DNA of 64,000 nucleotides from a virus. The translations under genes were made by a program, and so were the position numbers. Shown piece by piece: positions 6,061-62,560 of this stretch; the stretch's first letter is position 1, and each line of letters begins with the position of its first letter. The DNA lies in IMG/VR virus record IMGVR_UViG_3300027859_000006, positions 1 through 64,000 of that record; one strand, given 5' to 3'. The notes beneath the pieces were generated by a model, which had not been told where the DNA came from, did no database searches, and worked only from the letters and a program-made list of their open reading frames with translations.

Positions 6061-6729
6061 ATGGCTAGAGCTAAACTTGATGTAACTCCAGAACAAATGG
6101 AGAGTGTAATCGCTTATTTGGAAACAGATAAGGCGACTAAAAAAGCTGCCTGTGAGATGCTTGGCATTGCGTATAATACTAAGCGTCTAGGTACGCTTAT
6201 CGAAGATTATCAGCAAGGTCTAGAGCGGGACAAGCGACTTCGCGCTAAAAAGCGTAAAGAACCAGTTACAAAAGCCGAAGTGGTAAATATCATCACAGAT
6301 TACTTGTCTGGTGATTCTTTAGCTGAACTATCAGATAACTACTACCGTAGTACAGCTATTCTTAAATACCATCTAGAAAAGCACGGTGCTCTTCTTAGAA
6401 CTAACGAGCGTGTAAACGAGCTTAACCCGCCTTTGTTACCTGATGAATGTATGGCGGATTCTTTTGAAAACGGACAATATGTATGGGTAGCCAAATATGG
6501 CTCGATTGGTATCGTTAAGGCAAAATTTAAAAATGCGTATCGTGTTAAAGTAATCAACGAGTCAATGAACCAGTATTGTTATCAGCCTCCAGAAGAGCTT
6601 GGGTCGCTCGAGCACTTGATAGAGCTTGGAGTGGATGTTAAGGGACTTATTAAGTCTGCAATGTCCGATGATGATATTTTGATAAAAGTTAACGAGGGTG
6701 TAAAAAATGCCAACAAGCGAACTAGATAA
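6061..6729 (+). CDS. D2: T5 D2-like protein
   Basis: TKKAACEMLGIAYNTKRL HTH-like motif, size and synteny with T5 D2. Confidence 0.7.
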   Translation: MARAKLDVTPEQMESVIAYLETDKATKKAACEMLGIAYNTKRLGTLIEDYQQGLERDKRLRAKKRKEPVTKAEVVNIITDYLSGDSLAELSDNYYRSTAILKYHLEKHGALLRTNERVNELNPPLLPDECMADSFENGQYVWVAKYGSIGIVKAKFKNAYRVKVINESMNQYCYQPPEELGSLEHLIELGVDVKGLIKSAMSDDDILIKVNEGVKNANKRTR

Positions 6730-8132: not shown

Positions 8133-8528
8133 ATGTCTGACTGGACACCTGAAGCAAAAGATGAACTAATCGCGCAATACGTAACAGAAATTGAAAAATT
8201 TCCAGAAGCAGAGCGTGGCGACCACAGTGCGGAAATCGTGAAGAGCTTATCAGAGCAATTTGATAAGACTGTTAACGGTGTACGTATTATCTTATCAAAA
8301 GCTGACGTTTACGTCAAGAAAACTCCAACCGCTAAAGCAGCTAAATCTGCTGACGGCTCAACTGGCGCTAAGCGTGTTAATAAAGCACAAGCAATTGAAG
8401 AACTAAAAACTGCAATTGCAACTATCGACGAAGACCTAATCGACGAAGATATCGTGACTAAGTTAACAGGTAAAGCTGCGCAGTACTTCACAAGCGTTCT
8501 AACACAAGCAACAGCACTAAAGGGGTAA
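8133..8528 (+). CDS. D3: T5 D3-like DNA-binding protein
   Basis: WTPEAKDELIAQY ... TVNGVRIILSKADVYVKK ... RVNKAQA ... KLTGKAAQYF; synteny. Confidence 0.8.
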   Translation: MSDWTPEAKDELIAQYVTEIEKFPEAERGDHSAEIVKSLSEQFDKTVNGVRIILSKADVYVKKTPTAKAAKSADGSTGAKRVNKAQAIEELKTAIATIDEDLIDEDIVTKLTGKAAQYFTSVLTQATALKG

Positions 8529-9139: not shown

Positions 9140-10094
9140 AACTGCTTCTGAAGCCTACTACGATGGAAACCCAATCCTTACTAATGAGCAATACGACACA
9201 TTAGAACGTATGTACGGACAAACTATCTCTGGTAACGGAGACACACCTCACGCATTTAGAATGTACTCACTTCAAAAGTGCTACGACATGCAGGATGCCC
9301 CACTAAGCATCGAAAGATGTACCAAAACTCCAAAGCTAGACGGAGCTGCTATTTCATTATTATACGTCCAAGGAAATTATACATTGTCTCTTACTAGAGG
9401 TGATGGATTTAAGGGACGCGATATAACAGATAAAATCCGACAGCTTGTTCCGCATAAGATCGAAACCGACAAGGATTTAGTACAAATTACTGGAGAAGTA
9501 GTTTGTAGTCACACTATGCCTAATGCGCGGAATTACGTATCTGGAGCTTTAAACCTTAAAGACTTCGACGAGTACTCTAGCAAGGTTGTAGAAGGATCTA
9601 TTGAATTTGTTGCCTACTCTGTACAAACCTCGGAATCTTCTATTGGTATTACTACTTCATATCCGGATGACATGAAGTTCTTATACCGAAACGGATTTTT
9701 GCCTGTAACTGAACTACAGATAGAAGATGGTTTAGCCTCTGCTTATGGAACAGCAAGCTTTCTAACAGACGGAATTGTGTACAGACTATCTAGTAACGCT
9801 CAATTCAAAGCGCATGGCTTTACCTCTAAGTTTCCAAAAGGAGCTTTTGCTTTCAAGGAGAATGCTGAGGCTGTGGAGACTACTCTTTTAGACGTAGTTT
9901 GGCAGACTGGAAAAAGCGGCAAGGTTTCTCCAGTGGCGATTCTAGAACCTGTTATGGTAGGGGATGCGAAAGTATCTCGCGCTACTCTTAACAATATAGA
10001 ATTTATAAAGGCGCTAGACTTAGAAATAGGATGCAAGGTAGGCATTGTTCGCAGCGGTGAAATTATACCTTGTGTAGTTTCCCGTATTGATTAG
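9123..10094 (+). CDS. ligA: NAD-dependent DNA ligase, subunit A (adenylation + OB domains)
   Basis: YYDG/EQYD, KLDG active site, TRGDG, RATLNN, RSGEIIP. Confidence 0.95.
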   Translation: MKELLKTASEAYYDGNPILTNEQYDTLERMYGQTISGNGDTPHAFRMYSLQKCYDMQDAPLSIERCTKTPKLDGAAISLLYVQGNYTLSLTRGDGFKGRDITDKIRQLVPHKIETDKDLVQITGEVVCSHTMPNARNYVSGALNLKDFDEYSSKVVEGSIEFVAYSVQTSESSIGITTSYPDDMKFLYRNGFLPVTELQIEDGLASAYGTASFLTDGIVYRLSSNAQFKAHGFTSKFPKGAFAFKENAEAVETTLLDVVWQTGKSGKVSPVAILEPVMVGDAKVSRATLNNIEFIKALDLEIGCKVGIVRSGEIIPCVVSRID

Positions 10095-52728: not shown

Positions 52729-53063
52729 TATAGTGGTTCCGTACCAGGGCCCCCAGGAGGAGTTCCGGCCTCTTCGTTGATTTCCATCTCAAAGTAATAT
52801 TTATAGGTATTTTGATTAGTTACATTAGAATCTGTATAGATTATGTCACGTTGGATAAAAAACCCCTCGCCCCCGTCCGTTGGTAAGCTGTAATTTCCAG
52901 AAACTTTAGAGAAAGACCCATTGTTAGTAGACCTCATTACGTATCCGTATCCATCTTCTTTAAGTTGTATCCCAGACCCGCCAGAATTCACTCTAACATT
53001 TATAGATACTTCTACTGTAGCCCCTACTATTTCTGCGTTTATTGTACTGTTGTTAGTTGCCAT
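52728..53063 (-). CDS. Small FN3-like virion protein
   Basis: GYVMRS...YTDSNV...YKY FN3-like pattern; RBS AGGAGG; TAATG coupling to the RBP gene. Confidence 0.6.
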   Translation of the reverse strand: MATNNSTINAEIVGATVEVSINVRVNSGGSGIQLKEDGYGYVMRSTNNGSFSKVSGNYSLPTDGGEGFFIQRDIIYTDSNVTNQNTYKYYFEMEINEEAGTPPGGPGTEPL

Positions 53064-53084
53064 GGTTTCCTCCTAATATTTAGT

Positions 53085-53113
53085 ATTATACGGTAAGCTA
53101 TGCAAATTTTCAA
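53085..53113 (-). promoter_or_regulatory. Late promoter for the RBP-terminase unit
   Basis: TTGAAA-17-TATAAT on the minus strand. Confidence 0.75.
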
Positions 53114-53214
53114 TTGTATTATTTTTACCCACGGTCTAGTAATGCAATTTGCCCAGTGTTACACGTACGGGTATGGCCTGTACCAAGCCATTGAAGACGT
53201 GTCTGGAAACCGCC

Positions 53215-53329
53215 CTGTATAGTGTTTTGAGTAATATGCTAATTTTCTAAGTGTTACACGCGTCTAGTAGAATCAGCGCTGTATAGTGTTTCTATCAATA
53301 TGCTAATTTTCTAAGTGTTACACACGTCT
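53215..53329 (+). repeat. Two 51-bp direct repeats (period 64 bp) at the late/pre-early junction
   Basis: CTGTATAGTGTTT-N5-AATATGCTAATTTTCTAAGTGTTACACRCGTCT at 53215-53265 and 53279-53329; partial copy near 53140-53165. Confidence 0.9.
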
Positions 53330-53385
53330 GGGGGCGACCCCGTATCTAAATGAGAATAAGTCTCATTACCGCCCCCTATGGGTAT

Positions 53386-53413
53386 GGGATCACATACCTT
53401 AGCATGTGATCCC
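53386..53413 (-). terminator. Inverted repeat ending the leftward pre-early operon
   Basis: GGGATCACAT-N8-ATGTGATCCC just past the A2 stop; lacks a clear U-tract. Confidence 0.5.
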
Positions 53414-53420
53414 GATCCAA

Positions 53421-53804
53421 TTACTCGGTGTCGTCATCCGATCCGCTTTCTAGATCATCGATGATCGCCGCTTGTTGCTCAACAAATGCCGCTAGCGCTT
53501 CAAGTTCTCCCTTGTTCGCCTTTTCCAAGCTGTCAACCGTTAGACCTGTTGTTTCAGCGATTTGCTTAACAACTTCGATTTTACGCGTTGCGCTTGGGTT
53601 GCCCACCTTTGCCTTAGCTTCTGGCGAGATGTATTCGCCCATGCTAACCAACTTCTGACGCGCGCTGTGTTCTGTTACGTCAGAGTCGTATGCAAGCGCT
53701 TTAAACGCTGCCGGTTCAAGCGCCTTGCCACCATTAGCTTTGATAGCTGCCGCGTATGCTGTGCTTAACTTCGCTGTGTTTTCTTCTGTCCAAACTTTAG
53801 CCAT
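53421..53804 (-). CDS. A2: A2-like pre-early DNA-binding / second-step transfer protein
   Basis: WTEENTAKLSTAY, SARQKLVS, KVGNPSATRK, SLEKAN..ELEALA match T5 A2 as recalled. Confidence 0.8.
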   Translation of the reverse strand: MAKVWTEENTAKLSTAYAAAIKANGGKALEPAAFKALAYDSDVTEHSARQKLVSMGEYISPEAKAKVGNPSATRKIEVVKQIAETTGLTVDSLEKANKGELEALAAFVEQQAAIIDDLESGSDDDTE

Positions 53805-53899
53805 GATTTGATCTCCTTAGATCGTAAATTAAATGTTGGTTTGTGTTTGCGGTCGTATTTTGCCCCGACCGCTTGAGCATTAAAACAAATTAAGAACGG

Positions 53900-55561
53900 T
53901 TATGCAACAACTTTTTGCGGGTTCAAGGTGATTAATTGTACCTGTCCGTTGCTGTATTCCATCATGTGACCGTGATCCCACGATGACGCGCCCCCACGGT
54001 TATAGCCTTGATTTAGTCGAGCGGTAACGCCTGTAGTAAACACTGAGCCTATTATGCATGGGCTGTGGGTGTGTCCTGTTATTAGGTTTAAATTCCAGTC
54101 TTTGAACTGATTTGGGTTTCCTGCGCTCCCGTTTGCGCCCTTGTGCCCATGCTGCGAATAATCGAATTTAAGCGGCTTAAAAGGCTTATCCATTCGACCA
54201 AAATGCACATTATTGGGTAACTCTGGCAATGTGGTTAGATCGGCATTTTCTAAGGCGATCTGTAACGCGTTTTTCTCATGTTCACCTTGGTCTAAGGTAT
54301 CGCACACTAACCAATTTAACAGATAGTATAATTTGCTGTTATGGCTGTCCTGCTTGGGATTAACGCTACTATCATCCAGCCAATTGTCGAGCGCTGAGTT
54401 GTGATTGCTCTCGGTGATCGATACGGTATCAACTATGGTAGATAATTCGGTTAACTGTACGATTACCTGTTTAAGGTCGTTCTCAACGCTTTCATGTCGA
54501 TTTGCGTACAAGTGCTTCCCACTGTTACGGTTATGGTGAGACCTTGTGCTAAAGTGTAAAATATCGTCAACTGCGATCACACTTGGTTTAACTTTGTCAA
54601 GAAAGTCCATTGTCTTTTGCCAATATGCATGATCGTAAACTTCACAATGTAGATCACCAAGTTTTCCGGCTTCTGGTAATTTACCGTAATAATATTCGAG
54701 TTCAGGTAACACCACATTCAATGATCCGTCATCGCCTTGAAAAACGTTGGTAACGTTATAACCACCGTCACACTTGTAAACGATCATGGCTGCCTGTTTA
54801 TGGTCTTTTTCCGCTTCTGCTCCTGCGCGACTTCTGGTGTAGTTGTACGCTGTGCAGCTACCAGTAGTGACAGCCTTTGTAATTGATTGATCGTTAAGTC
54901 GTGGTAGCGTTTTGTACTGCTGCTTGGGGCTTGCTACTACCGTGATTAGTTCACCACTATTCAGCTTGGCCGCTGCATTAATAGGCAATTTGTTAGTTGG
55001 TAAAACTGCTGCGGTGCTAGCGATCAAACAGGCGTTTTTCTCGAATAGCCAACAATCGTCAAGCTGTAAAAACGGCGTGACCTTAGGGTTAAATACTTCG
55101 GCTTCGGTCTCTACCGCTGGACTAAAGGCGTTTTTGTTATAGTAAACGGGCATTACCATTAAACGCGCATCTAGTAGGCTTGCTCTCATATCATCGATCA
55201 TAGCAAGAAGTTGATCCTCAAAGCCTGTGGTAATAGTGTTATTTTGTGCGCTTGTAATTACGAAAACATCACCGTCTAGAACTGGCAATAAATCGCGCTG
55301 TGATTGAGTGTAACCAACTTGTGTATCTGCCGCTGGTTTAGTCGCTGCACTTGGCTTTTTCGCTTTCTCAGCCTCTCTCAGGCTCTTTAGATGCTCAACA
55401 ACTAGCGGCATTAAAATAGCTGCATCGCCTTTAAGATCAAGGTTATGGATCGCATCCTCAACAACTTCCAAGCGTGAATCACGTTTACGCTTACCTAAAA
55501 GGTTATTTTCCTCGCACTCTGCGCAAAGTAGATCAAAGTTTTTATCGTTTAAATGTTTCAT
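53900..55561 (-). CDS. A1: A1 pre-early nuclease (host DNA degradation / second-step transfer)
   Basis: VITSAQNNT, TTGSCT, GDLHC, SNHN, HGH, GHTHSP, GYNRGGASSW; metallophosphoesterase fold; 553 aa. Confidence 0.9.
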   Translation of the reverse strand: MKHLNDKNFDLLCAECEENNLLGKRKRDSRLEVVEDAIHNLDLKGDAAILMPLVVEHLKSLREAEKAKKPSAATKPAADTQVGYTQSQRDLLPVLDGDVFVITSAQNNTITTGFEDQLLAMIDDMRASLLDARLMVMPVYYNKNAFSPAVETEAEVFNPKVTPFLQLDDCWLFEKNACLIASTAAVLPTNKLPINAAAKLNSGELITVVASPKQQYKTLPRLNDQSITKAVTTGSCTAYNYTRSRAGAEAEKDHKQAAMIVYKCDGGYNVTNVFQGDDGSLNVVLPELEYYYGKLPEAGKLGDLHCEVYDHAYWQKTMDFLDKVKPSVIAVDDILHFSTRSHHNRNSGKHLYANRHESVENDLKQVIVQLTELSTIVDTVSITESNHNSALDNWLDDSSVNPKQDSHNSKLYYLLNWLVCDTLDQGEHEKNALQIALENADLTTLPELPNNVHFGRMDKPFKPLKFDYSQHGHKGANGSAGNPNQFKDWNLNLITGHTHSPCIIGSVFTTGVTARLNQGYNRGGASSWDHGHMMEYSNGQVQLITLNPQKVVA

Positions 55562-55626
55562 AAATAACGGTTTCCCTATTAAGGTTTTTTAAGGATCTAT
55601 GAAGATCCCGTTACGAGTTGATCAAA

Positions 55627-56142
55627 TTAATGACCGTGAAAAGGAACGTGAATTGCTTTCATGTTCAGGCGCTGTGCCATTTGGCAGTTTGCTAGATTAT
55701 CATCGACCAAAAATGATCGCGACAATTCAGCCGATGAAAATGCGCGTGTTAGGTGGTACTCTTTTAATTCAAAATCTCGTCTACGATCATTTTCGCCCTC
55801 TCTGGAAAAGATTGCGGTCGGTTTGATCCCGTTTTTACGCAACCACTTTTCAGAGTTCTTGCACATAACGCGAGCGGTACAAACAAAAAATGGTCTACCT
55901 GCATCAGTTAGGAACTGCGGCACTTCTGCCAGTGGCATGATCTGATCTTTAGCAATATTTGCAGCCGTTGAAAGTTTACGATACATTTCAAGGTTAAGCG
56001 ATCCGTCAGGGTGTATCGCTTGGCGGTGTGTAGCATCGATCACTACACCATCAAGATCAAAAATAGGTATAATGCTCTGATCCAATAGGATCGCATCAGT
56101 CATTTGAAGCGCTGCCGCTCTTGTATTTTGAATTGTTAACAT
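55627..56142 (-). CDS. HAD-family phosphatase (Dmp-like / PNK phosphatase-like)
   Basis: FDLDG motif I, CTAR motif II, K, VDD motif IV; pre-early location. Confidence 0.8.
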   Translation of the reverse strand: MLTIQNTRAAALQMTDAILLDQSIIPIFDLDGVVIDATHRQAIHPDGSLNLEMYRKLSTAANIAKDQIMPLAEVPQFLTDAGRPFFVCTARVMCKNSEKWLRKNGIKPTAIFSREGENDRRRDFELKEYHLTRAFSSAELSRSFLVDDNLANCQMAQRLNMKAIHVPFHGH

Positions 56143-56216
56143 CTGGTTAACTCCCGTTTAAGGTATATAAAAATATACGGTTTTTGTTGGGGCTGCTTGC
56201 CTCTCAACTGTTACCC

Positions 56217-56244
56217 ATTATATAGACCAACAAACTTTTGTCTA
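56217..56244 (-). promoter_or_regulatory. Leftward pre-early promoter
   Basis: TAGACA-16-TATAAT on the minus strand, upstream of HAD-A1-A2. Confidence 0.7.
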
Positions 56245-56299
56245 TATTAGTTTTTATACGTATGTATGAAATTATATACTTTTCATTTGCTCTGTTCTG

Positions 56300-57035
56300 T
56301 GCTACCCTACCAGCAAATGCAAATGAGAACTATTCTCATCTGACCGGCTCCGCCAGGTCGGAACGACCAAACGCAAATGAGAATGATTCGCATTCAACCG
56401 CGCCGATTTTGGGTCGCTTTCCCAGCTATGACTTATTATTGCATTTACGTGTAGCATTGTCTAGAACTAATTTATTATAAGAATGAATTTATTTAGGCGA
56501 TTTTGTTATATAGTGAATTGTGGCATTCTAGCAATTACTATGCCAACTCAAAAACCGTGCCAAAGTCGCAAATCGCGTATAAGCGGTCTAAATGGCTCTG
56601 TATTGAGAGCTGGATGCAAGCCAAGCAAGTGCATTGCTATACCGTAGAAGTCTTCTCATATTGCCATTGTGTAAGTTGTTGATTTTAAAGGGAAAAATAA
56701 TGCTTGACAAGCCGATGGCACGATTTTTTCTATTGCAAACGACGTGCCAACTTTTATTGGTCAATTTCACTACTTTTTAGTCAATTTCGCTTATGGCACG
56801 GACTTTGCTAGGTAAATACGAATGCAAATGATAATGATTCGCATTTGACCGCGCCGAAAAATGGCATGGAAGTTGCTAGGGAAGTTATCAACAGGTACGT
56901 GTGAGTAAGTGAAGTTATGCACAATACTGTATAAATGTACAAGCGCTCAGCGGACGCTGGTGGACTTATCCACAGAAAATTGTGGATAAATATACCTGTA
57001 TAGATATACAGTAGTTTTAAGTTGTGGGTAACTCA
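56300..57035. promoter_or_regulatory. Cluster of host-factor binding sites (Fur, sigma-54, IHF, DnaA, LexA)
   Basis: Fur-like 56322-40, 56376-94, 56827-45; sigma-54 TGGCAY-N5-TTGCW 56530-45(-), 56734-49(-), 56794-809(+), 56862-77(+); IHF 56672-84(-); DnaA 56966-74 and 56981-89 plus 3 one-mismatch boxes; LexA 56996-57011. Confidence 0.75.
56375..56410 (+). repeat. 36-bp exact direct repeat (second copy 60121-60156)
   Basis: AAATGAGAATGATTCGCATTCAACCGCGCCGATTTT in both places; variants at 56826-56860 and 53348-53376. Confidence 0.9.
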
Positions 57036-57190
57036 AACGTACCATTTAAAGCTCCTGTAAGCCATTCTGACGGGTTTTTATGTGAGAGTAATACTAGGGC
57101 TTAGGTGGGATAGAATACCTAGTGAGTCCAGGCGAAGCCTGGTTATAAAAAACGGGTTTTCTAGAGCGAAAAGTTATTATAAAAAGGTAC

Positions 57191-57219
57191 TTTACAATTT
57201 TAGCCACCGCTACTATAAT
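57191..57219 (+). promoter_or_regulatory. Rightward pre-early promoter
   Basis: TTTACA-17-TATAAT. Confidence 0.8.
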
Positions 57220-57271
57220 GTATTTAAAGGTTGAGGCAATAAGGCAGCAACCAAAAACGGGGTATAAAAAT

Positions 57272-57637
57272 ATGAAATATTTCAATTTTGATGTTAATGC
57301 ATCTATTTCTGTAAAAGTTGAACTAATTCAACTAGTATCTAACTCTGAACTAGTTGCTCTACGCTTTTCACGTACCGAAGAAATTTTTGGTATTAAAGAA
57401 CTTGTAAGTGTAAAGCATGTTGCAGTGAGCAATGAAGAGGTGTACAGTACTAAGCTAGAATCCCTAGCTATTAAGGCATTTGGTACTAATAGTAAAATAT
57501 ACGCTACATTTTTAGTTGCAGGTAAAAACGAAAATGCTAACGAGCACTACTATAAACTTATGGAAATTCAAGAACTCCTACACGCATTAAAAACCAGACC
57601 TAATTTAAGACTTCGTAATATGGAAGTTACAAAATAA
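57272..57637 (+). CDS. Pre-early hypothetical protein
   Basis: Start moved to ATG 57272, after the promoter and RBS GGGGT. Confidence 0.7.
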   Translation: MKYFNFDVNASISVKVELIQLVSNSELVALRFSRTEEIFGIKELVSVKHVAVSNEEVYSTKLESLAIKAFGTNSKIYATFLVAGKNENANEHYYKLMEIQELLHALKTRPNLRLRNMEVTK

Positions 57638-57826
57638 TATAAAAAAAAAGGTCTTGACTTTCTAGTTAAGACCTGCGCCGCGCGCCGTAGGCGCCAAAAT
57701 TATGACACATGCAAGCTACGTGCCACTACGCAAGATTACGTGTGTGGTCTGACCAGTGAAAAAGTTGTTGCGGTCTTAGCTGGTAGCTGTATAATGATTA
57801 CATCAACTAGAGACAGGGAGACAGGG

Positions 57827-57967
57827 ATGAATGCATCTCATGTTATAGGCTTGCTATTTTTAGGCCTAGCCATTGCTACACTTTTTTCTAGAGAGCCACT
57901 AGCGGCTATACCAGTGGCTACTATAGGTGTGTTGCTAATGTTTGGCAACACTGAGAAACCAGTTTAA
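57827..57967 (+). CDS. Small two-TM membrane protein (46 aa)
   Basis: RBS GGGAG, TATAAT at 57790-95, hydrophobic sequence. Confidence 0.6.
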   Translation: MNASHVIGLLFLGLAIATLFSREPLAAIPVATIGVLLMFGNTEKPV

Positions 57968-57991
57968 CCCCGTAGGCGATAACCGCCATTT

Positions 57992-58021
57992 TGCCCCGTC
58001 TATCTGGGCGGGGCATTTTTT
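57992..58021 (+). terminator. Rho-independent terminator
   Basis: TGCCCCGTCT-ATCT-GGGCGGGGCA-TTTTTT. Confidence 0.75.
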
Positions 58022-58033
58022 AAGGGTAGTATA

Positions 58034-58225
58034 ATGGATAAAAAATTCGGCTGGTGTGGTGCTGGCTTAATGGTAATTTTTAGCTTTACCTTGTTGCCGA
58101 TTTTCGGTATACTAGGTCTGACGTTGCTTACAGTGCAAGCGGTTAGCACTAAGCAACATAACTTGACAGCTCTAAACACATTTAGTATACTAGGGCTGAT
58201 TTTAAACTCTACGGGAGTAATTTAA
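58034..58225 (+). CDS. Small membrane protein
   Basis: RBS AAGGGT; strongly hydrophobic 63 aa. Confidence 0.65.
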   Translation: MDKKFGWCGAGLMVIFSFTLLPIFGILGLTLLTVQAVSTKQHNLTALNTFSILGLILNSTGVI

Positions 58226-58226
58226 T

Positions 58227-58625
58227 ATGTTTAAGCAATTCGCAGCAACACGTATTCTAGCTACAGCTATCGCTTCGGTTTTGGATTCTGGAAAGGATCT
58301 AAGTTGTGAAAATGTTGTTTCAGCTATGATGATCGAGGCAAGCAAAAACGAAATCCCTTACGCGGATTTAAAAACCTTTTGTGTTGACACGATTGTAGTG
58401 GCAACGAATACACCTACTACTCCAATCGTTGCAAACCTAGAGGAAATTGCACAAGCGGATGATCCTCTGATGCATTTAGCCAGTCGTATATTGAGCGATG
58501 AAAACATGGGAGCGCTACAGAAAAACCTAGAGGCTGAGCCTGATGAAGATGAGGAAGAAGGTTCACTACTTGATGTGATTCGTAGCTTGCGTGGCAATGT
58601 GCGCACGGAAAAGGATGTAAACTAG
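58227..58625 (+). CDS. Acidic pre-early hypothetical protein
   Basis: RBS GGGAG, operon context. Confidence 0.7.
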   Translation: MFKQFAATRILATAIASVLDSGKDLSCENVVSAMMIEASKNEIPYADLKTFCVDTIVVATNTPTTPIVANLEEIAQADDPLMHLASRILSDENMGALQKNLEAEPDEDEEEGSLLDVIRSLRGNVRTEKDVN

Positions 58626-58636
58626 TAGAGGCAGCT

Positions 58637-58885
58637 ATGGCGAACACTGGCATTGAAAAGGGGTGTTCGCCTACACCCCTGAGAACAGTAAGCACAATTC
58701 GCAGAGAGATTCAAGCCCTAGAGCAAGAATATCTCAATTTACCTAGTATAATGGTAGCTAGTATAGTAGGGTACGATTATATAGATCGTATTAATGCGAA
58801 AAAATCAACTATTAATTTTCTCACTACCAGAATAAGACGCCGCAAGTTTTACAACTGGCTGAGAAAGAAAACAGGGTGCAAATGA
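58637..58885 (+). CDS. Hypothetical protein
   Basis: RBS GAGG. Confidence 0.6.
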   Translation: MANTGIEKGCSPTPLRTVSTIRREIQALEQEYLNLPSIMVASIVGYDYIDRINAKKSTINFLTTRIRRRKFYNWLRKKTGCK

Positions 58886-59142
58886 TGAAACTAGAAGACA
58901 AACTAGAAGTGGTTAAAAAGTTAACTGACCTATTTAAACGTAACTACGGTACACAACAAAGTGTGGAGATACTCCAAGCGTTATTCGATGCAGAGGGTAG
59001 TGCGGAGGAGGATTTCGCGGTTGATGAACTACAACCCATTTTAGGGCTACACTTGAGCTATGTTTCTGAAAGCGATGAGACAGAGCAGAGCGACATTGAT
59101 ACTACCAGTTTATTATGTGAACTTTTTGCATACTGCACTTAG
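58876..59142 (+). CDS. Acidic hypothetical protein
   Basis: Overlaps the previous stop; start GTG 58876 or ATG 58882/58885. Confidence 0.6.
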   Translation: MQMMKLEDKLEVVKKLTDLFKRNYGTQQSVEILQALFDAEGSAEEDFAVDELQPILGLHLSYVSESDETEQSDIDTTSLLCELFAYCT

Positions 59143-59244
59143 TAAAATTAATTTCAAAAAAGCGCTTGCTTTTTTGTGTGCCCGTTGTATACTATAAACA
59201 AGTCGAGGCAATACCGCCAAGACACTAATAACGGGGTAAAAAAT

Positions 59245-59697
59245 ATGAAAACTTCTTCTTTTGTGGCTGGTACTGTAGATTGCGTTTATCCTAGACCTGT
59301 AGAGGGTGACGACTTGGCAAAGGTGGCCGCTGCTCTAGACAGCATGGAGGAACTTTATACAGTTGAGCTATCGCTGGATAACTCTTTTGATAGTGAGGGA
59401 GAGTACCTAGTGCCTCTATTGGCAGGGTTTGACCTGAATAATGACTACCGTGCAGAGGGCAGACTAAACAAGTCTTTCCGTGATTATAAAGACCGTAGCA
59501 AGGGCTTTGCGTTCGTAGGCAAAATGGAGGTGCAGCCTCGCTACCTACCACAAGCAGAATTTTGGTTCAATACTACTAGAGAACCTAGCACATGGGGGGA
59601 GGCTTTGCAAGCTACCGTAGAGCGGATCAAAGAACACGACGGAAGAGGCACTTTAGTAGTAAAAGCCCGTCGCGAAATTTTTAAAATAGCTATCTAA
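59245..59697 (+). CDS. Pre-early hypothetical protein
   Basis: Promoter TTGCTT-16-TATACT (59166-93), RBS GGGGT, start moved to 59245. Confidence 0.7.
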   Translation: MKTSSFVAGTVDCVYPRPVEGDDLAKVAAALDSMEELYTVELSLDNSFDSEGEYLVPLLAGFDLNNDYRAEGRLNKSFRDYKDRSKGFAFVGKMEVQPRYLPQAEFWFNTTREPSTWGEALQATVERIKEHDGRGTLVVKARREIFKIAI

Positions 59698-59798
59698 TCA
59701 ATAATAGGGGCGCAAGCCCCCCAATACTTACAACTGGAGAAAATGAAGATGAAATTTAAAAAAGCTATGAAAATTGTAAAAAAGCTTGACAGCTAAGC

Positions 59799-59981
59799 AT
59801 GAAAGCAAAAATAACTATGCTAGAGGAATTAACAGGCATAGAGGATGGTGAAACTCTGACCAAAGAAATACTAGCGCAGGGTGTAACTCTTGAAAACGTC
59901 GCCTTAGCTAATTCAGCCGCCAACAAACATACGTTTACTTGGACAAAAGACGACGTAGAAAGGATGCGACCTTATATGTAA
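59799..59981 (+). CDS. Hypothetical protein
   Basis: ORF after a 17-codon RBS-led mini-ORF (59743-59796). Confidence 0.45.
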   Translation: MKAKITMLEELTGIEDGETLTKEILAQGVTLENVALANSAANKHTFTWTKDDVERMRPYM

Positions 59982-59984
59982 ACT

Positions 59985-60245
59985 AAAGTGAATAAAAAGT
60001 GCATATTTATGCACTTTTTTGCATAACCGCGCCGCTCCGGCACACGGATTCCCACCTATACAGTATAACAGGTCTACACGTCAACGCAAGCACTTTTTAA
60101 CTGGTCAGACCACGTAATCTAAATGAGAATGATTCGCATTCAACCGCGCCGATTTTACCATACCCTGACACAAAAAACAAGTCTACATGCAAATGATTCG
60201 TATTTAACTTTTTGAATCTAAATGCAAATGATTCGCATTCGCAAA
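59985..60245. promoter_or_regulatory. Second host-factor site cluster (ArgR, FadR, Fur x3)
   Basis: ARG box AGTGCATATTTATGCACT 59998-60015 inside a 26-bp palindrome; AACTGGTCAGACCAC 60099-113; Fur-like 60122-40, 60186-204, 60221-39. Confidence 0.65.
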
Positions 60246-60319
60246 GTAACCTTATTTTTCGACAAATAAATTTACCGAAAAATCGGGGGTTTACCCCTGT
60301 CCGGGAGCGCAGCGACCTG

Positions 60320-60526
60320 CGCCAGAGTACGATTTCGACTAGTACTAAACCGACCGCTGCCCCTACGTGTGAGCTACCCTGAGTACTAATCCGACTACCA
60401 TGGCGGCTTGTCCCAATCTTCAGCAGACACTACAGCTTCTGACGGGCGTGCTGTGCTGGTGGAAGTAGACGGGCGCGAAGTGCCCGTCGCCAGAGTACGA
60501 TTCTGACCTAGTACTAGACCGACCGC
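60320..60526 (+). repeat. ~38-bp imperfect direct repeats
   Basis: CGCCAGAGTACGATT..GAC(C)TAGTACTARACCGACCGC at 60320-60357 and 60488-60526. Confidence 0.8.
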
Positions 60527-61442: not shown

Positions 61443-61754
61443 ATGTGGAACGAACAAAAATCTGCTCAACTAGTTAAGACTTACAAAACTAACGGCTACG
61501 ATGCTGCGCAAGCGGCGAAGGCGCTTGGAGTATCGGAACGCTCTGCTATCTCTAAGCTGGTGGCTCTAGGAGAGTATGTTAAGCCTGTTAAGGTACAAGC
61601 TTCCACGGGGCGCATTAATAAAACTCAGTACATTTCTGCGGTCGAGGCAATGCTAGGAGTCAAGTCTGGTAAACTAGCGGGTCTCTCTGGGGCTAGTGCT
61701 AATGCGATAGAAGAATTAGCGGCTGCTCTTGTAAAACTAGGAGACCGTGCATAA
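61443..61754 (+). CDS. Second A2-family DNA-binding protein
   Basis: WNEQKSAQLVKTY, VSERSAISKLVALGEYVKP, RINKTQYI; parallels ORF 53421-53804. Confidence 0.75.
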   Translation: MWNEQKSAQLVKTYKTNGYDAAQAAKALGVSERSAISKLVALGEYVKPVKVQASTGRINKTQYISAVEAMLGVKSGKLAGLSGASANAIEELAAALVKLGDRA

Positions 61755-62002: not shown

Positions 62003-62094
62003 CGCCGCTCCGCGGCGAGCCCTTTCCCATCTATAACATGTATTATACGCGGAATTGAGCCCGTTTGCAAGTGATTTTTAGTAAGAAACTGGTG

Positions 62095-62560
62095 AGGCTA
62101 GGGTGGGTTTTGGGAAAGACTCGGGGAATTTTAGTCGCGCCTAACGGTCGTTTACGACCTGCGCCTCCGAAAAAGCTAAAAAATTGCTTGCGAGGCTACA
62201 AACCCAAATTTCGCCACTTCGCGGCGGATTAGGGTAAAATGTTGCAAACCCAATCTTGGCCGTAAACGGCCGGGTTATGGGTAGAAGTGTAATAGACCTA
62301 GGGGAAGGTTGGGAGGGATTTGGGATACAAGTGTAATCCGCATCGAGGAAAGAATTTGGGTAAGTGTTGCTAAGGTTCTCGCCGGAACAATGCCGAAGGC
62401 ATAGAGTGGGCGAGGATATAGCAGAAGTGTAATAGAAGTATAGTAGAGTCTAGGGAGAAGTCTAGGCTAGAGTTGGAAAGGCAGCGGGCGGGGCGAGTCC
62501 AGGGCCGTATGTTGGGAAGGGTCGGGGAAGGTTGGGATGGATTTGGGATTAAGTGGGGAA
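62095..62560 (+). other. G-skewed non-coding block with G-quadruplex motifs, hairpins and repeats
   Basis: G3 tract sets at 62101-126, 62301-324, 62514-558; repeat GGGGAAGGTTGGGA(G/T)GGATTTGGGAT at 62301 and 62524. Confidence 0.7.

Follow-up and report, generated by a model that had tools for sequence, protein, structure and literature searches.

The first 64,000 nucleotides of the 108,151-bp IMG/VR virus record IMGVR_UViG_3300027859_000006 (the window) hold the pre-early genes of a T5-like phage, and the gene-free blocks beside those genes carry clusters of sequences that match the binding sites of host regulators. To judge from sequence, the blocks are the counterpart of Repeat Regions 2 and 3 of phage T5, built of a few short modules in shuffled order, and each module is a near-consensus predicted site for a constitutively available host protein (sigma-54 RNA polymerase, DnaA, LexA, or, less surely, Fur) that recognizes much the same sequence in all Gammaproteobacteria. 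The best reading is that selection has maintained them as places where DnaA, LexA, sigma-54 holoenzyme, and probably Fur of the host can dock, because they are confined to pre-early non-coding DNA, are conserved in relatives both near and far, and fit the consensus even at positions that were not part of the search. That complexes of these host proteins at the edges of the pre-early operons act in cis, holding the DNA, blocking polymerase, and gating transcription, is a proposal to which we give a probability of about one half.

Among the A1 proteins of the phage collection, the nearest comes from Vibrio phage phi 3. The two are only 47% identical, and the phage is therefore taken to belong to the T5 family (Demerecviridae) as a distant marine member. 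When the region was compared with the phage collection by megablast, no match appeared, and relatives were reached through the A1 protein. Two of them, IMG/VR loci L004 and L005, are close, with A1 proteins 92-93% identical to that of the window.

Predicted host sites in the gene-free blocks

Motifs were counted by pattern scans over the whole genome and compared with the counts from 300 dinucleotide shuffles of the gene-free blocks. The consensus sequences were gammaproteobacterial. Against the risk of finding something by looking for many things, three controls were used: exclusivity within the genome, reversed patterns, and two control motifs (CRP and Fis-like), both with 0 matches.

The original prediction, that first-entering DNA of this phage presents a panel of sites for abundant host proteins, was accurate in its coordinates, every motif being found where it had been placed, and in noticing no such clusters elsewhere, since sigma-54 and Fur-type matches occur nowhere else in the 108-kb genome. 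Indeed, all of the sigma-54 elements, the Fur-type boxes, the inverted pair of DnaA boxes, and the consensus LexA box are confined to the non-coding blocks by the pre-early genes (Table 1). In the shuffled controls, 0 of 300 reached the observed numbers of sigma-54, Fur-type, or DnaA sites; the IHF count was not above the shuffles.

The five consensus sigma-54 elements and two degenerate ones that had been described are all present, and the five are the only exact matches in the genome, a number that no shuffle attained (mean 0.01). All five fit the extended -24/-12 consensus, with a distance of exactly ten bases between the GG and GC doublets.

The genome has six Fur-type 19-mers with two or fewer mismatches and seven with three or fewer. 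Of the seven that had been proposed, the copy at 53349 belongs to an element of the genome end (see below) and not to the array. Mismatches were counted over the 16 defined positions of the 7-1-7 / 9-1-9 consensus: four copies have one and two copies have two. The copy at 60186 has four mismatches, yet it is clearly a member of the repeat family. The 19-mers all lie within 53.3-60.3 kb, with none in the other 100 kb, and the shuffle mean was 0.00-0.02. A G/C-rich 9-mer followed by a run of A or T is joined to three of the Fur-type boxes and occurs once alone (56397-56410, 56848-56861, 60026-60034, 60143-60156). It is similarly joined to Fur-type boxes in L004 and L005 and may be a further protein site.

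Perfect 9-mer DnaA boxes number three in the genome (shuffle mean 0.02, the observed count reached in none of the 300), and two of them form the inverted pair at 56966/56981. The three weaker boxes reported along with the pair, at 56885, 56915, and 57023, are there as one-mismatch or relaxed forms. Two LexA boxes stand among them, a perfect CTGT-N8-ACAG with an AT-rich spacer at 56996 and a one-mismatch copy at 56927, both as predicted. The first fits the 20-mer LexA consensus at 17 of 20 positions. It is about 190 bp upstream of the nearest sigma-70-type promoter and about 110 bp downstream of a sigma-54 element, and it overlaps or follows no promoter. CTGT-N8-ACAG occurs twice in the genome, once at 56996. 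The shuffle mean for the blocks was 0.03, and 8 of the 300 shuffles reached the observed count, so the count is weak evidence when taken alone; the box, however, is kept in every relative tested.

Three other proposed sites fared less well. The "perfect" IHF site at 56672-56684 (minus strand) is one of nine such matches in the genome, a number reached by 45 of the 300 shuffles, which is the level of chance; its sequence is kept in L005 and altered in L004. The palindromic ArgR box at 59998 is a single palindrome that forms a hairpin and lacks the tandem ARG boxes, 2-3 bp apart. It has an 11-bp stem flanked by runs of A and T, comes directly after the last open reading frame (ORF) of the rightward cassette, and is best read, from its sequence, as a terminator. 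The two FadR sites match only in their palindromic cores, which are contained in the arms of one 29-nt inverted repeat that brackets the cassette. The FadR-like palindrome is present in L005 and in phage PR1 but absent from L004, T5, phi 3, IW18, DU_PP_V, and Roth39, so that conservation does not extend to the family at large.

The clustering of five DnaA boxes in 150 bp, at a distance of 200 bp from an IHF-like site, calls to mind oriC, and the terminal repeat might contain an origin of replication or recombination dependent on host DnaA. This is very improbable. The origins of T5 lie near the center of the genome, and its replication genes enter only with the second-step DNA (Davison 2020, 10.1101/866236); the IHF site is no more than expected by chance; and no AT-rich unwinding element was identified in the region.

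Conservation among close relatives

The central gene-free block has a mean identity of 87% among the window, L004, and L005. Invariant columns make up 91% of the motif positions and 81% of the others (Fisher p = 0.002). For the sigma-54 elements, 40 of 44 core columns are invariant, versus 13 of 20 in the spacers. The differences that do occur within motifs are mostly at degenerate positions of the consensus or are swaps between allowed variants of the DnaA box, and in the part that contains the DnaA boxes and LexA boxes, about 130 consecutive columns are the same in all three. In L004, one sigma-54 element has been lost by a point change and a 61-nt insertion has brought in new sigma-54 and Fur-type boxes, which at the sequence level is turnover with replacement.

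One position offers a test that is independent of the search. The base following the -24 hexamer was outside the search pattern, yet it is G in 17 of 23 distinct sites across the phages, in a genome of 40% GC, and a G there agrees with the published sigma-54 consensus.

The gene-free blocks are dense in palindromes and in direct and inverted repeats, among them families D1-D4 and the inverted repeat I1. Indels of 11, 14, and 61 nt separate the relatives, and since none of these lengths is divisible by three, they fit a block that is not translated.

The sigma-54, DnaA, and LexA series in distant relatives

The array was looked for across the Demerecviridae by scans of whole records, with reversed patterns as control (for sigma-54, 0 matches in five genomes and 0-1 in the other six; for LexA, 1 in total). 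LexA and DnaA sites were found in all, while Fur-type and sigma-54 sites proved to be the property of some lineages only. A LexA-consensus 16-mer palindrome lies in the pre-early repeats of 8/8 Demerecviridae genomes, from 7 lineages (the set is the window, G001, T5, phi 3, 234P3, IW18, PR1, DU_PP_V, and Roth39, with the window and its relative G001 as one lineage), and the only matches outside the pre-early repeats are three with one mismatch. Perfect DnaA boxes concentrate in the same pre-early regions. Where sigma-54 matches occur, they are exclusively pre-early: in phi 3 (2 per repeat), 234P3 (5), G001 (6), IW18 (1 per repeat), DU_PP_V (1), and G002. Fur-type arrays are found in T5 (9552-9715), Roth39 (9954-10042), DU_PP_V, and the lineage of the window. 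The "terminal Fur boxes" of T5 (position 231) and Roth39 (position 111) were not accepted, as both fall within the coding sequence of dmp.

Two further phages with A1 homologues, HNL01 and KASIA, served as outgroups only, as they are not T5-like around A1. In HNL01 (L011, MZ456352.1, an Aliivibrio phage), the A1 homologue stands among many co-oriented unannotated genes, and seven Fur-type 19-mers are scattered over the genome, versus one for the reversed control.

In the window, the sigma-54 element at 56862 is followed by DnaA boxes at 56885 and 56915, the LexA-like box at 56927, the DnaA pair at 56966/56981, and the LexA box at 56996. The series sigma-54, DnaA, LexA recurs in the same order and relative orientation in phi 3, IW18, 234P3, and IMG/VR contigs, again with a DnaA box at the position where transcription from the sigma-54 element is predicted to start. 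When 2.9 million IMG/VR contigs were searched for sigma-54 elements that have a perfect DnaA box 8-14 nt further on, 12 matches were obtained, where chance would supply a handful by our estimate from the information content of the motifs. Half of the 12 share a fixed geometry, with DnaA boxes at +26 and +76 from the sigma-54 element and LexA at +106. Five of these six loci encode homologues of A1 or A2, and the sixth is on a 121-kb contig. Two more of the matches come from a single 128-kb genome, one in each copy of its repeat, and have a related layout of sigma-54 and DnaA sites. The window differs in its spacing (+23, +53, +104, and +134, as against the fixed +26, +76, and +106 of the Vibrio phages) and in the place of the series, which in the Vibrio phages is near the distal end of the repeat and points back at the cassette but in the window lies upstream of the cassette. 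A full-text literature search found the sigma-54, DnaA, LexA series of Vibrio T5-like phages in no paper.

A different arrangement was seen at 8439-8480 of locus L025 (IMGVR_UViG_3300034102_002314), a 42.5-kb viral contig with no A1 in the stretch that was fetched: four perfect DnaA boxes at an exact 11-bp spacing, beside a sigma-54 element.

Perhaps the palindromes and repeats are instead sites for proteins of the phage itself (the A2 dimer, A1, the terminase, or a factor that binds the ends), their likeness to host sites being mimicry or coincidence. Second-step transfer requires A2, which binds DNA and is a dimer (Davison 2020, 10.1101/866236), and this phage has two A2-like genes. Short repeat arrays straddle the boundary of the repeat in T5 and phi 3, and the palindrome at 53349 lies within the conserved genome-end element. 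Moreover, many of the Fur-type copies in this phage, Roth39, DU_PP_V, and T5 share the same departure from the Fur consensus in one half-site, which could point to a different binder. However, the four classes of motif each fit a different host consensus, two of them perfectly, and for a 12-position palindrome to fit the LexA core by chance has a probability of about 6 in 10^8 per site. The DnaA, LexA, and sigma-54 sites hold to the host consensus although the A2 and A1 proteins are down to 30-47% identity, and even the Fur-type variation stays within the range compatible with Fur. On balance, it seems unlikely that the sites serve phage proteins, and docking by host proteins remains the preferred account.

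Orientation of the sites toward the pre-early operons

According to the original prediction, most of the sites have no downstream ORF to regulate. The orientation of the elements does not support that view: the four central sigma-54 elements point outward at two divergent pre-early operons, two toward the genes encoding the dmp-like, A1, and A2-like proteins and two toward the rightward cassette, and the same is true of 234P3 and phi 3. This outward arrangement favors the main rival to docking as such, namely that the elements are conditional promoters, fired by an enhancer-binding protein of the host, with the Fur, DnaA, and LexA sites as operators through which the phage would read the iron, replication, and SOS status of the cell, a sensing role that the original prediction also allowed. 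None of the Fur, DnaA, and LexA sites overlaps a sigma-70-type promoter; they fall on or downstream of the predicted sigma-54 start sites. A Fur-type box lies just past that of the 56794 element, and a DnaA box lies on that of the 56862 element as well as on those of the elements of phi 3 and IW18. The element at 57710 is followed by a hairpin and T-run, which predicts an RNA of about 60 nt.

Other observations speak against promoters. Both operons already have strong sigma-70-type promoters, much closer to them than the sigma-54 elements. No upstream site for an activator (enhancer-binding protein) was recognizable near the sigma-54 elements, and no sigma-54 activator domain was found in the phage genome. 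The distal element of phi 3 and IW18 is turned the other way, toward the operon's own end; T5 and several other lineages do without sigma-54 sites; and the block around 57710 is not kept in the close relatives. We consider conditional promoters clearly less probable than complexes that act in cis.

Two narrower ideas were tried and put aside. One was that the -12 element doubles as a T5-style -35 hexamer, but by eye and by promoter scan only the 56530 element has a usable -10 at the right spacing. The other was that small RNAs driven by sigma-54 provide a general explanation, on the model of the 57710 element with its hairpin and T-run (z = -2.3). It was dropped because the 57710 block is absent in L005 and rearranged in L004. 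The minus strand from 57640 to 57725 does contain the sigma-54 element and, after it, two hairpins (the first a GC hairpin) and then nine consecutive T. A scan of 53-63 kb against Rfam gave only noise below threshold and no Qrr-like or other family.

Relation to the injection stop region of T5

T5 injects its DNA in two steps, and the stop and restart of injection have been unsolved since the 1960s. The array was put forward as a candidate new system. It is not a new system: the blocks have their homologues in Repeat Regions 2 and 3 of T5 (the injection stop signal, iss), whose repeats and DnaA boxes have been published (Davison 2020, 10.1101/866236), as the original prediction itself noted for the stop region. 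As summarized there from Heusterspreute 1987 and Wang 2005, the two regions consist of IRC-spacer-IRD and IRD'-spacer-IRC' together with DRE repeats and contain the injection stop signal. The same paper (Davison 2020, 10.1101/866236) calculates that the shear point of first-step DNA falls in repeat DRE2, proposes that membrane-bound DnaA anchors the stop region, and calls the function of the other repeats "impossible to guess"; it makes no mention of LexA, Fur, or sigma factors. In papers from 2020 to 2026, the stop region is still described as "repeats, palindromes and DnaA boxes", functional experiments are lacking, and the only host partners named in these papers are DnaA and, loosely, IHF/FIS. 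Full-text searches, which did not cover the 1987 sequence paper or Davison 2015, gave no link in the T5 family to a LexA/SOS box, a Fur box, or sigma-54/RpoN. What goes beyond published work, having been found in no paper, is the LexA palindrome in 8/8 genomes, the Fur-type arrays including that at the T5 shear point, and the marine series of sigma-54, DnaA, and LexA.

T5 itself has the LexA-consensus palindrome at 6213 and at 9411. In its stop region, the order is LexA at 9411, four DnaA boxes at 9437-9518, and then the Fur-type array, and Repeat Region 2 is the mirror image. The Fur-type 19-mers of T5 lie inside two DRE repeats of 66-67 nt. The link between them and the shear point is made through the names of the repeats and not through coordinates, because the numbering of two T5 records differs by several tens of bases.

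The resemblance of the window to T5 is one of plan. In both, untranslated, repeat-dense blocks flank a variable rightward cassette beside dmp, A1, and A2; DnaA boxes adjoin a 16-mer palindrome; and the two blocks have a short inverted repeat in common. The details differ. The DnaA boxes of the window are single except for one inverted pair, whose members are separated by a 6-bp gap, whereas T5 has four pairs 3 bp apart; the inverted repeat common to the blocks is 29 nt long in the window and 131 bp in T5; the window has five sigma-54 elements and T5 none; and the dmp-like, A1, and A2-like genes run in reversed order relative to the central block.

The window adds to the T5 story five consensus sigma-54 elements that point outward or are paired with operators, the densest such set in this analysis, the connection between DRE repeats and Fur-type boxes in T5, and a fixed geometry seen across IMG/VR. 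A reading in terms of LexA, Fur, and sigma-54 turns unexplained repeats into a short list of host factors that can be tested. It would also be unusual, for here a strictly lytic phage would carry high-affinity operators for global regulators of its host on the leading part of its DNA.

Possible docking of host proteins and its roles

Once the leading 3-7 kb of DNA is inside, host proteins would load on the sites, and the pre-early operons would come to lie between stable complexes. Without an activator, sigma-54 holoenzyme stays at a promoter as a closed complex. Because the phage encodes no sigma-54 activator, it is predicted that the holoenzyme would sit in this form unless an activator of the host acts. 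With a DnaA or Fur site on the sigma-54 start site and LexA and DnaA sites adjoining, the complexes could hold the DNA, block a transcribing polymerase, and gate conditional pre-early transcription during the pause before second-step transfer. It is this action in cis that we regard as having an even chance of being correct.

Several considerations weigh against it. It is not obvious how proteins bound to DNA that has already entered would stop the part that has yet to enter. Since T5 can grow on recA hosts, cleavage of LexA cannot be essential. No sigma-54 sites were found in T5, in Roth39, or in the PR1 repeat, and Fur-type arrays are absent from phi 3, IW18, and PR1, so that from the sequences compared the only universal sites are those for DnaA and LexA. 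The departure from consensus shared by Fur-type half-sites could reflect descent from one copy or else a different binder. Finally, the series of LexA and DnaA sites occupies only the central block in the window but the distal end in T5 and phi 3.

A stronger version would have the pause itself created by a clamp supplied by the host, made of DnaA, LexA, and Fur (joined, in marine lineages, by sigma-54 holoenzyme) over the final few hundred bases of first-step DNA and later released by A1 and A2. Such a clamp could block the reeling in of the remaining genome, whether by polymerase or by diffusion. The idea is speculative, and we think it probably wrong as stated; if true, the clamp factors would be redundant, which would account for sixty years in which the mechanism was not exposed by any single host mutant.

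The original prediction also allowed that the array might act as a sponge, titrating Fur, LexA, DnaA, and sigma-54 so as to derepress host regulons or disable replication and sigma-54 responses. The sites are at or near the consensus of highest affinity, each genome has two copies of the repeat and replication multiplies them, and late in infection many copies of 5-6 sites could matter for sigma-54, which is scarce (about 100 per cell). At the first-step stage, however, there is one copy of the DNA, with 6-7 Fur, 1-2 LexA, and about five DnaA sites, fewer than ten for any factor, and Fur, LexA, and DnaA number hundreds to thousands of molecules per cell. T5-type phages degrade host DNA within minutes and shut off host transcription early, leaving derepressed regulons with no obvious target. 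Given the single copy at entry, the abundance of the proteins, and the early destruction of host DNA, titration is most unlikely.

There are precedents for clusters of sites whose role is binding itself and not control of an adjacent gene. The datA cluster of DnaA boxes in E. coli and intragenic sites of sigma-54 holoenzyme are of this sort, but they are chromosomal and act on the host's own pools of protein, whereas the array considered here is on incoming phage DNA, serves several factors, and is present in one copy at entry. In the transcription-driven entry of T7, too, signals for host polymerase on the leading end control the entry of the rest. T7, however, pulls in its DNA with active sigma-70 promoters, while the sites of this phage would hold or block, and the second step of T5 needs A1 and A2 and not, as far as is known, transcription.

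Layout of the region and the genome ends

The leftward operon, central block, rightward cassette, and second block (Table 1) are syntenic with those of T5, phi 3, and 234P3. Read from the central block, the order of genes is dmp-like, A1, A2-like, the reverse of that in T5, phi 3, 234P3, and IW18 (A2, A1, dmp). The second A2-like gene, a weak match to phrog_1725, is at 61443-61754. Searches of Pfam and PHROG with the small ORFs of the non-coding blocks and the cassette returned no family.

Table 1. Features of the pre-early region, with positions in the window
Feature	Position	Strand	Remarks
Genome-end element, conserved	53330-53376		palindrome 53349-53367 flanked by G/C-rich inverted arms
Leftward pre-early operon (dmp-like, A1, A2-like)	53421-56142	-	PHROG matches
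A2-like DNA-binding protein	53421-53804	-	PHROG match (matches in the operon: phrog_1745, 5e-130; phrog_1725, 2e-16; phrog_415, 2e-20)
A1 DNA transfer protein	53900-55561	-	phrog_1745, E = 5e-130
dmp-like phosphatase	55627-56142	-	PHROG match
Central gene-free block	56.15-57.2 kb		from layout
Sigma-70-type promoter-like site beside dmp-like gene	56217-56244	-	11/12 hexamer matches
Fur-type 19-mers	56322-56340, 56376-56394		span 56322-56410; second has 16-nt extension, and the unit is exactly repeated at 60121-60156
Sigma-54 element; degenerate sigma-54 element	56530-56545; 56547-56562	-	both face dmp-like/A1/A2-like operon; kept in L004 and L005
Degenerate sigma-54 element	56716-56731	+	
Sigma-54 element	56734-56749	-	faces left
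Sigma-54 element, Fur-type 19-mer, sigma-54 element	56794-56809, 56827-56845, 56862-56877	+	both sigma-54 elements face rightward operon
DnaA/LexA module	56885-57031		DnaA 56885(+), 56915(+), 56966(+), 56981(-), 57023(-); LexA-like 56927-56942; LexA 56996-57011
Sigma-70-type promoter-like site beside first rightward ORF	57191-57219	+	11/12 hexamer matches
Rightward cassette	57272-59981	+	small pre-early orphan ORFs without known family
Gene-free block inside cassette span	57.64-57.8 kb		from layout
Fifth sigma-54 element	57710-57725	-	faces hairpin and T-run terminator on same strand, 57640-57673
Arms of 29-nt inverted repeat	57744-57772, 60085-60113		family I1, 90% complementary; each with FadR-like palindrome
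Second gene-free block	59.98-60.66 kb		from layout
Hairpin ("ArgR box")	59994-60019		putative terminator; stem and flanks described in text
Distal Fur-type array	60122-60140, 60186-60204 (weak), 60221-60239		three 19-mers

The terminal repeat is collapsed in the contig. The genome-end element and a set of G-rich repeats suggest that the repeat, hence the first-entering DNA, extends over about 53.3-62.3 kb. Counterparts of the end element are found 30 bp from the annotated left end of phi 3 (L003, 1-60), 17 bp from the start of the DU_PP_V record (L010, 1-50), and 72 bp from the dmp-side end of the IW18 repeat (L008, near 7650), and also in the relative G001. The element is about 35-45 nt long, with G/C-rich arms around the palindrome and then a common G/C-rich tail, and in four divergent T5-like lineages it is no more than 20-90 bp from the physical or annotated left end of the genome. 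By this comparison, it probably marks the physical end of the phage at about 53.32 kb, and it may be a site of end recognition or end protection. Just outside, at 53146-53329, two 60-nt direct repeats and a third, partial copy stop exactly where the end element starts; they could be packaging-recognition repeats that adjoin the terminal repeat.

At the other side, the G-rich direct repeats are in a gene-free block at 62091-62549 and are like those where the annotated terminal repeat of phi 3 ends. The repeat may have its right boundary in this block, which may also be where the phage has its true stop region. Nearer in, just beyond the distal Fur-type array, two families of GC-rich direct repeats, D9 and D10 (38 nt and 19 nt), occupy 60302-60526 and overlap a doubtful ORF of 77 amino acids on the minus strand.

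The pre-early genes themselves stand out in one further respect. GATC is under-represented about 3-fold in the genome as a whole (133 copies), yet 36 copies are found in the 3.2 kb that encode the A2-like, A1, and dmp-like proteins (53000-56200); the trend of CTAG is the opposite.

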